This document shows positions 25,652-27,975 of a DNA stretch of 64,000 nt, piece by piece. How positions within the stretch are numbered: position 1 is the stretch's first letter; each line of letters starts with the position of its first letter. Source of the stretch: Heptranchias perlo (Eukaryota); the NCBI RefSeq assembly GCF_035084215.1, contig NC_090359.1:12276001-12340000 (forward strand), read 5' to 3'. The notes under the pieces were generated by a model. The model saw nothing but the letters and a program-made list of their open reading frames with translations. It was not told the origin of the DNA and searched no databases. Both the position numbers and the translations under genes were made by a program.

Positions 25652-27878
25652 TCACTCCTCCCCCAGGGTGTGCTTGTCAAACAGGTACACTCCCATGCCA
25701 TTCTCAGGGGCTCCCAGTCTCTTCAGGTTGGTGATGTGATCTCCAAGCTTCTTGATCATCTTCACTTGTTCATCCAAGTAGTGGGTCTCCAGGAAGTCAC
25801 ACAACTGGAAAGGGAAAAATAAAAATCAAGCTAGCTACTTGAATCATTAGGTTCCTTTAATCTCACTTCCCTACTGGGGAATACTCAAGGTCTCATAACA
25901 AAATATGGCCAAGAGACTACCAGATCTAACTCCTTGCCCTCCCAGCCACTGGTATTGAAAATAAATGCTGCCCTGCCCCAGTCCCTCACCTAAAGTCAGT
26001 ATCCATTTGAAGGTTCCCTTCAAGCCCAAGATATCTCAACCCTTGAAACAGATTGATTTCAAGGACAGATTTTAATGCTCACCTTCAGTAGATTTAACAA
26101 ACCTCAGATTTAGAAATGGAAAGTATTGAGCTGCATTCAGTCTGATGTGATTTTAAAGGACAGTGCTAAATTACACAATCCCAAATTAAAAATAAACCCA
26201 AAAGCAAAATGCCACTGATGCATTAAGGACTTACACGAGGGTCTGTCCTCTCAGTGGACAGTTTGTGCAGATCCAGCAGACTCTGGTTCACATCCTTCTC
26301 CATCTGCAGAGCTCTCTGTATCGCCTCCAGACCATTGCCCCACTCATCCTGCTCTGGCTTCTGAAAAGGGAAGTCTTTCAAGTCACAAAATGCTCAAGCT
26401 CCCATCTGCATCCCATGCAGTATTAATCTCAAACTAGCCTGAAACAAGAGGATGACTGGAGAGTGGAAGAAAATTGATTTTTGCCCTGATGTTAGCAACA
26501 AGTACTCTGTTCAGTTATAATGTAGAACATGTGGCTCATTAATGAGAAAACATCTTCTCTGCTGTGGAGACATTTTCCACATTCTGAAAGCTGGATAGAG
26601 GCTGCACTGGGGACCAATCATTCAATATGAAAATAAGCCTCAATAAATTACATTTGGCCCAGTCATGAACTCAACAACTGGCAGGTGGGTCATTAACCAG
26701 AGGACACACATTGAAGATAATGGGCAAAAGAACCAGAGGGAAGATAGAGATTTCATATATAAACAGTGAATTGTTACAATCTGGAATGAAATGCCTGAAA
26801 GGGAAGCTGATTCAATAGCAACTGTCAGAACAGATTTTTATGTATAGAATCATGAAAAGGAATAATTTACAGCTCTATGGGGAAGGAGCAGGGCACGAGG
26901 GACTAATTGGATATTCTTTCAAAGAGCCAGCACAGACACTATGAGCCAAATGGCCTGATTCTATGAACAAACCTTGATGTCCTCCAAGATGATTCGGCCT
27001 CCACGCTGATTCTGGAATTTCAGCAGTTTCTCAGCATGCTCCCGTTCCTCATGTGACTGCTCCTTGAAGAACTCAGCAAAGTGACGCAGGGCAACATCAT
27101 CCCGGTCAAAGTAATAGGACTGGAATTTTAAACAGAATCATGTCAGACCTAGATCTCACCGACATACAAATATCTTTCTCTCCCCTCCCCAGTTAATGAG
27201 TGCTCAAAGTTTCTTTAAAAAAATACTATGTTAACTAGCAACGCAAACTAAACTGTACTTAGAGTAAGTAGCCCCTCCTTCTACTTGCTATTCTAATCTA
27301 AAATTGGGCAAGGAACAAGAAAATTCTTATATTCCAGAAGTTTCAAACTCCACAATCTGTGTTAAGGATCAAGGCAGTGAAAAAGCCTAGGACTCTCATA
27401 GTACTTCACCTGCAAGTAAAAATGCAAGAAAACTAGTGAGGACCTGTCAACATTTCACTGGCAACAGTCACCCCATTGAAACTGAACCTTTTAAGTCAAT
27501 TGTTGACAAGCACTTGACCAGGTTTCTGCTCCTCTGTTACAAATTCAAGCAGCAGCTGAGCCAGGTTCATATATTAAGCCCCTCAATAGAGTGCAGGTGC
27601 TGTAAGGAGCAGTCCATTAACACAAGATCACCCCATATTACACACAAAGTACTTACTGCCCAAAGATATTCCACCCCAGGGAGGAAAAGGAACTCAAGAG
27701 AAATGTAATTTGAATCCAATTCTGAACAAAAAAAAAATTCCAAGTTCTCAGAATGAAGAGACAGTACAAGACTCACCATGGAGAGGTAAACATAGGAGGA
27801 ATAGAGCTCCATATTGATCTGCTTGTTGACACCATCCTCACACTCCTTGTGGTAGTTCTGACACACTTGGGAAACCAT
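25652..27878 (-). CDS. Ferritin heavy/middle-type subunit copy 2, 4 exons: 27878-27777, 27119-26973, 26360-26235, 25804-25652 (175 aa)
   Basis: GT-AG introns, same exon phases as copy 1, open frame [10 protein letters not shown]...FDKHTLGEE*. Confidence 0.93.
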
Positions 27879-27975
27879 CTTAACTTTTACTGTTAACAGA
27901 AACCTCACTTCAAACACCACTGCATGAAACATGCAGATGGGAGCTTGAGCATTTTGTGACTTGAAAGACTTCCCT
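26367..27975. repeat. Perfect 45-bp inverted repeat, arms 26367-26411 (intron 2 3' end) and 27931-27975 (5'UTR)
   Basis: agggaagtctttcaagtcacaaaatgctcaagctcccatctgcat and its exact reverse complement. Confidence 0.95.

Follow-up and report, generated by a model that had tools for sequence, protein, structure and literature searches.

Ferritin gene and its surroundings

The window, 64,000 nucleotides of Heptranchias perlo DNA (assembly GCF_035084215.1, contig NC_090359.1, positions 12,276,001 to 12,340,000), contains on its minus strand a four-exon ferritin gene whose features are collected in Table 1. PF00210 is matched by all four exons, two of which exceed the cut-off on their own; the reading frame is unbroken and each intron is bounded by GT and AG. 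Because frame and splice sites are intact, the gene, judged from its sequence, is no evident pseudogene. For comparison, 32 other ferritin copies of the genome were used, and eight of them, hereafter called siblings, share intron 1, exon 1 and the 5′ UTR with this gene.

Several features of the surroundings were recorded along the way. At 26236, the end of exon 3, His is replaced by Arg; the change is common to the copies L018 and L030, and a second GT stands 2 nt ahead of the donor there. The Met to Ile change at 26319 is private to the gene. A LINE with EN-RT frames and a split ORF2 occupies 28162–33040, head-to-head with the ferritin promoter; six of the eight siblings lose similarity at 28162, while L014 and L030 are similar beyond it. 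A perfect 17-bp hairpin was found at 28437–28514, and tandem arrays lie at 58082–59456 (32-nt unit), 55216–55609 (18-nt unit) and 36879–37014 (6-nt unit).

Table 1. Features of the insert-bearing ferritin gene (positions in the window)
Feature	Position	Strand	Basis or remark
Ferritin gene	27878-25652	-	four coding exons, 175 aa
Exon 1, coding part, 34 codons	27777..27878	-	PF00210 match
Exon 2, 147 nt	26973..27119	-	PF00210 match
Exon 3, 126 nt, skipping frame-neutral	26235..26360	-	PF00210 match
Exon 4, coding part and stop	25652..25804	-	PF00210 match
Insert, 38 nt, reverse complement of intron-2 26374-26411	27931..27968	-	38/38 nt match
Older 7-nt microhomology AGGGAAG, matches donor 26367-26373	27969..27975	-	in 8/8 siblings
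Older 8-nt match CATGCAGT, matches donor flank 26414-26421	27919..27926	-	
Donor, intron-2 positions -51 to -7	26367..26411	-	identical in 27/32 paralogues
Private G>A, 7 nt upstream of arm	27982	-	sibling comparison
TATA-box homologue, TCTCAATA in place of TATAAATA	27988..27995	-	common to L030
New upstream AUG in insert, out-of-frame uORF, 15 codons	27905..27952	-	sequence reading
New in-frame upstream AUG spanning junction, +18 N-terminal residues	27930..27932	-	sequence reading

Anatomy of the inverted match

The original prediction had drawn attention to 27931–27975 as the exact reverse complement of 26367–26411. This was borne out: 45 of 45 nucleotides are identical, with 1519 nt between the arms, and chance alone would give about 1.7 × 10^-18 such inverted pairs in 64 kb. 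It was likewise correct that the donor arm ends 6 nt before exon 3, as TTTCAG intervenes and the exon begins at 26360. The proposal that a 45-nt copy was inserted needs trimming. It holds for 38 nt (27968–27931), while the first 7 nt were already present in all eight siblings.

Comparison with the siblings gives the structure of both alleles. The empty allele reads AGGGAAG-AGGTTAGGTT-GTTTCATGCAGT in 8/8 siblings and the filled allele AGGGAAG-[38 nt]-GTTTCATGCAGT. Ten nucleotides of the sibling allele (AGGTTAGGTT) were replaced by the insert, whose last T is common to the replaced sequence and constitutes a 1-nt microhomology. The motif CATGCAGT lies 4 nt beyond the second junction in the UTR and 2 nt beyond the copied part in the donor, so that the UTR side runs GTTT-CATGCAGT and the donor side CC-CATGCAGT. 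It contains the CAGT of the CAGTG that had been described as a remnant next to the insert. The opposite strand of the gene offers 2291 possible donor starts. Of these, three have the 7-nt match of the first junction and seven, which are probably shifts of one site, the 8-nt near match of the second. Both matches together are found at a single start (1/2291), the true donor.

Paralogues and age of the insert

For the intron-2/exon-3 stretch, the 3.25-Gb genome gave 189 candidates, of which 40 were scored; at least 33 of these are full-length matches of 97–100% identity. Outside the eight siblings, the remaining 24 of the 32 copies diverge where exon 2 begins; three of these were extended upstream and possess a different exon 1 and promoter further out. 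Stop codons occur in 2 of the 32 paralogues, the other 30 being open across the exons examined.

Ferritin copy 1 of the window (ATG at 22810) shares no such insert, as had been stated. Its 5′ UTR and introns are unrelated to those of the insert-bearing gene, which makes it the wrong comparator; the proper ones are the eight siblings elsewhere in the genome. The check on paralogues that the original prediction had proposed was informative with these: the insert is absent from all eight, including the sister copy L030. The empty site occurs eight times exactly and nine times with one mismatch, the latter in more distant promoters, while each filled junction has one genomic occurrence even when one mismatch is allowed. 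Likewise, no similar insert was found in the 32 paralogue gene loci when 48 loci were scanned for perfect inverted repeats of at least 16 nt.

L030 is the nearest sister, differing at 13 of 2581 sites (99.5% identical). The two copies are grouped in the tree with support of 100/99 and both lie within a shared 8.9-kb duplicated block. Since this closest copy is without the insert, the insert is derived and younger than the duplication that gave the pair. The branch of the insert-bearing copy is of ordinary length. Its own-branch divergence amounts to 7 of 2587 sites, from which the probability that both arms remained unchanged is 0.78–0.80 (~79%); perfect identity of the arms therefore needs no selection. 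Private SNPs of the copy include those at 27982, 27262, 27239, 27170 and 26319. Since 27 of the 32 paralogues carry the identical donor, templates in cis and in trans, and of DNA and of RNA, are indistinguishable by sequence.

The array itself showed further features. Ferritin copies lie on C38 (9.6–17.7 Mb), C43 (4.24–4.77 Mb), C725 and C1048, and at least 33 of them share exons 2–4 together with introns at 97–100% identity. The paralogues have a mosaic structure whose breakpoints fall at exons (27122 in the window): 24 of 32 share introns 2 and 3 and not intron 1, and L033 and L036 share intron 1 and not intron 2. Such exon breakpoints suggest exon-mediated unequal crossover or conversion. 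A ~0.9-kb inverted-repeat (foldback) element was found within intron 1 of L033 (1394–2326). Antisense LINE 3′ tails stand at one position in the ferritin 5′ UTRs of L034 (567–630), L035 (2915–2924) and L040 (2908–2941), ~10 nt past the inferred start site and in two slightly different target alleles. In L043–L045 two ferritin genes stand head-to-head in divergent orientation, with LINE tails in between; in L043 and L045 exon 1 of the second gene has lost 2 nt, and the 5′ UTR of that gene adjoins a LINE tail.

Promoter and leader

A TATA-like box had been placed at 28013–28019. This assignment does not survive comparison with the other promoters, as the homologue of the conserved TATAAATA lies nearer the insert (Table 1). 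In 59 pattern-matched promoters, TATAAATA was found in 51, TATCAATA in four, TTTAAATA in one and TCTCAATA in three, including the insert-bearing copy and L030. Sharing with L030 indicates that this change of the TATA box is older than the insertion.

Copy 1 has a TCAGTTT that we take to be initiator-like by the initiator consensus; counted from the first T of the TATA box, its A is 32 nt downstream. The same spacing in the insert-bearing gene lands on an A within the deleted 10 bases. The start site, as placed by TATA spacing, was hence likely lost in the event. We infer that the nearest substitute start is 27962, which would leave 32 antisense nucleotides in the leader.

Loci were also searched for the iron-responsive element (IRE; RF00037, Rfam). 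None was obtained in the window between 20000 and 28600 (E ≤ 10), a range that includes the insert-bearing gene and copy 1, nor in seven paralogue loci (E ≤ 5), while two ferritin genes elsewhere in the genome exceed the Rfam cut-off and serve as positive control. CAGTG as an IRE was rejected, since it has no Rfam match though the control scores; it may at most be the remnant of a decayed IRE. At the margin of the C43 cluster lies an IRE-bearing ferritin, L042, from which the array copies may descend. Copy 1 retains 12 nt identical to the 5′ arm of the L042 IRE.

Predicted RNA duplex and splicing

Calculated over 45 nt, the duplex of the two arms has −86.3 kcal/mol; over the 32 nt that would remain in the leader, it has −59.8 kcal/mol. 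In a folding model with intron 1 removed, the mean pair probability was 0.97. The branch-point A is presumably that at 26383, by the yUnAy consensus; its predicted probability of being unpaired is 0.00 in the insert-bearing copy versus 0.99 in L030, although the stretch around this A in L030 is also mostly paired locally (predicted mean unpaired 0.23). The idea that a duplex masks the 3′ splice site can thus be kept in part. Folding predicts a stable duplex over the likely branch point, whereas the pyrimidine tract would less probably be paired: the inferred start falls within the arm, and the ~32 nt that remain end at position −20. On these models, harm to splicing in cis is plausible. By translation, skipping of exon 3 gives an in-frame product of 133 aa and retention of intron 2 a stop after 86 aa.

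Contigs of the sequencing runs were consulted for exon 2–3 usage, as had been proposed. The normal joint is present and no exon-3 skip occurs among the 15 joints listed, which report on the family as a whole and not on this copy. Assembled contigs of the presumed-RNA run X5 have zero coverage at 27922–28018, and in the presumed-RNA runs X6 and X8 the promoter is covered only by contigs of another UTR type; X7 gave no matching contig. The insert is not seen in these runs, which carries no weight as evidence against it.

Origin of the insert

The original prediction had offered a recent templated insertion, a repair scar, as its fallback, and this is where the evidence from the empty site, the microhomologies and the single occurrence points. 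We consider, with a probability of roughly two in three, that the 38-nt reversed copy of intron 2 arose by a microhomology-primed template switch in germline repair and is likely neutral or mildly damaging. The insert is derived, an intact reverse-complement donor lies nearby and the junctions bear microhomology (7 nt at the first; 1 nt plus the offset 8 nt at the second). The second junction is the weaker one, with just 1 nt of exact microhomology and an 8-nt match that is offset, 4 versus 2 nt. Signs of relaxed constraint were found in the mutated TATA box of the insert-bearing copy and L030, in the stops of the two paralogues and in LINE tails within the 5′ UTR at three of the eight other promoter loci retrieved.

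Under such a switch, a break or a stalled strand close to the transcription start would have set free a 3′ end, which would have annealed to the inverted match 1.5 kb off, at the intron-2 acceptor, either by fold-back on the same strand, on the neighbouring strand or on a paralogue. From this template 38 nt would have been copied, and the strand would then have been rejoined with loss of 10 nt. The switch points would take the order 1-4-3-2 on the gene, leaving one inverted repeat. If transcribed, an antisense leader of ~32 nt (45 at most) would pair with the branch-point region, and the duplex would favour exon-3 skipping or intron retention, while the added upstream AUGs would reduce translation. 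As at least 32 other copies share exons 2–4, loss of the insert-bearing copy would be tolerated.

The event fits the class of templated inverted insertions, MMB-TI or class-2-TSIP-like by its sequence; Pol theta end joining, MMBIR and replication slippage are not told apart by sequence alone. Germline templated insertions are common in humans, and in two humans microhomology of at least 1 bp was counted at 138/155 and 135/148 junctions (PMC8421209). MMB-TI events (PMC8421209) have in common with the ferritin insert a short reverse-complement copy of nearby DNA, the replacement of few bases, (interrupted) junction microhomology and a germline setting. They differ in distance, the ferritin donor being 1.5 kb off versus the 100-bp search window used there, and in location: in the ferritin gene a splice-acceptor region served as donor and the copy landed at a transcription start. 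In great apes, 1-4-3-2 is one of two majority patterns of template switching (PMC7954356). The point order, the one inverted repeat and the reading of direction from outgroup copies agree with these four-point switches (PMC7954356), but the reach in ferritin exceeds that of the catalogued short-range events and microhomology at the first switch is evident. Class 2 TSIPs (PMC5110952) show the same microdeletion, microhomology and intact donor with neither TSD nor poly(A), whereas they are templated by distant loci, with experimental inserts of 73–414 bp. The ferritin donor may lie in cis or in any of 27 paralogues, and the stretch is well covered in the runs of one individual only. In foldback inverted insertions of yeast (PMC11724301), too, a short inverted copy is primed by microhomology at one end and joined with little homology at the other, though the yeast templates adjoin the break and the ferritin template is 1.5 kb away. 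A transposon-derived inverted repeat was rejected, as the stretch matches ferritin copies alone and the junctions are unique.

Alternative explanations

The same scar could have been written from RNA: a break made by the endonuclease of a LINE (Tx1-type) or otherwise, which freed a sense-strand 3′ end at the start site, priming on the pre-mRNA at the 7-nt match and reverse transcription of 38 nt of intron 2. We regard this as unlikely, though it is the strongest of the alternatives. The polarity agrees with it, because a sense-strand 3′ end that copies sense pre-mRNA yields an antisense insert, and the gene is flanked by EN-RT LINE frames. In L034, L035 and L040 LINE poly(T) tails join the sense strand ~16 nt downstream of the equivalent position; the empty site, however, is unlike the T-rich target of these three copies, whose UTR type differs. 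RNA patches with microdeletion and microhomology were proposed for class 2 TSIPs (PMC5110952). Nevertheless, the insert has no target-site duplication, poly(A) tract or polyadenylation signal, it holds no splice junction and hence no positive sign of RNA, and a DNA donor at 1.5 kb suffices. The more specific case of a class 1 TSIP or target-primed LINE insertion was rejected on comparison of the filled and empty sites, as TSD, poly(A), polyadenylation signal and a TTTT/A site are all absent (criteria from PMC5110952).

It appears improbable that the insert is an assembly or sequencing artefact of this highly repeated array, produced by local misassembly or by a chimeric read. Among the contigs listed from three DNA-type runs (X1, X3 and X4), neither junction is bridged, and coverage of the arm is supplied by an intron-2 contig. 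However, contigs lose minority variants. Five of the seven private SNPs of the insert-bearing copy are also missing from the X1 and X3 contigs, a point that could itself be held for an artefact, and the alleles shared with L030 at 27532, 27536 and 27654 are likewise missing in X1. Since the private SNPs are lacking as well, the contig result neither confirms nor refutes the insert. It is a single copy within a repeat-rich array, but its signature is precise and biological, with microhomology at the one best donor and a 10-nt replacement. The window, moreover, has no N and sits in a 29.8-Mb contig, and the branch length of the copy is ordinary.

Adaptation had also been raised, with action of the leader on paralogues in trans. 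A selected regulator, whose antisense leader would tune splicing of its own intron 2 or silence paralogues through duplex, ADAR or small-RNA routes, is in our judgement very improbable. The predicted energies and the fully paired branch A speak for it, as does a perfect target in 27 of 32 paralogues, and human long-range pairings influence splicing (PMC8052449). The PCCRs described there likewise pair over long range within one molecule and could obstruct splicing signals, but they are conserved. The ferritin pair occurs in a single gene copy, where it links an intron with the 5′ UTR. Functional long-range pairs are known by conservation, and this is missing in the pair of insert and intron 2: the UTR arm is absent from 8/8 siblings, the 99.5%-identical sister among them, and no compensatory change was seen. 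The TATA box is mutated, and an intronic target leaves mature mRNAs of the paralogues untouched, with one gene facing at least 32 targets. Neither a regulatory role nor action in trans is supported.

Least probable of all is an intron copied from pre-mRNA, by LINE machinery landing at these ferritin start sites, into a splice-blocking antisense leader, which would combine a block of intron-2 splicing in cis with dampening of the 27 matched paralogues as a dosage brake on the array.

Implications

Large clustered ferritin expansions with ovary-specific expression were described in two sharks (bioRxiv 10.1101/2024.09.09.611499). The array of Heptranchias perlo resembles them in being large, clustered and mostly intact in its copies; for the Heptranchias perlo cluster we infer ovary expression. 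No paper was found, in a literature search of partial coverage, in which a UTR carries an antisense copy templated by an intron of the same gene. Our verdict is that of an ordinary repair scar, a known type of mutation in a known kind of ferritin array.

The template switch favoured here offers a worked example in which the empty allele, the filled allele, the donor and the microhomologies are all present within one genome, and it illustrates how a branch point can come to lie within a perfect long-range RNA pairing through one repair event. The gene also provides a convenient natural minigene for asking whether a downstream intron can be blocked by a 5′ leader. Greater weight would attach to it only if the leader acted on paralogues or had been written from RNA, neither of which has positive evidence. 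For the ferritin family, either splicing outcome would cost a single copy out of many.
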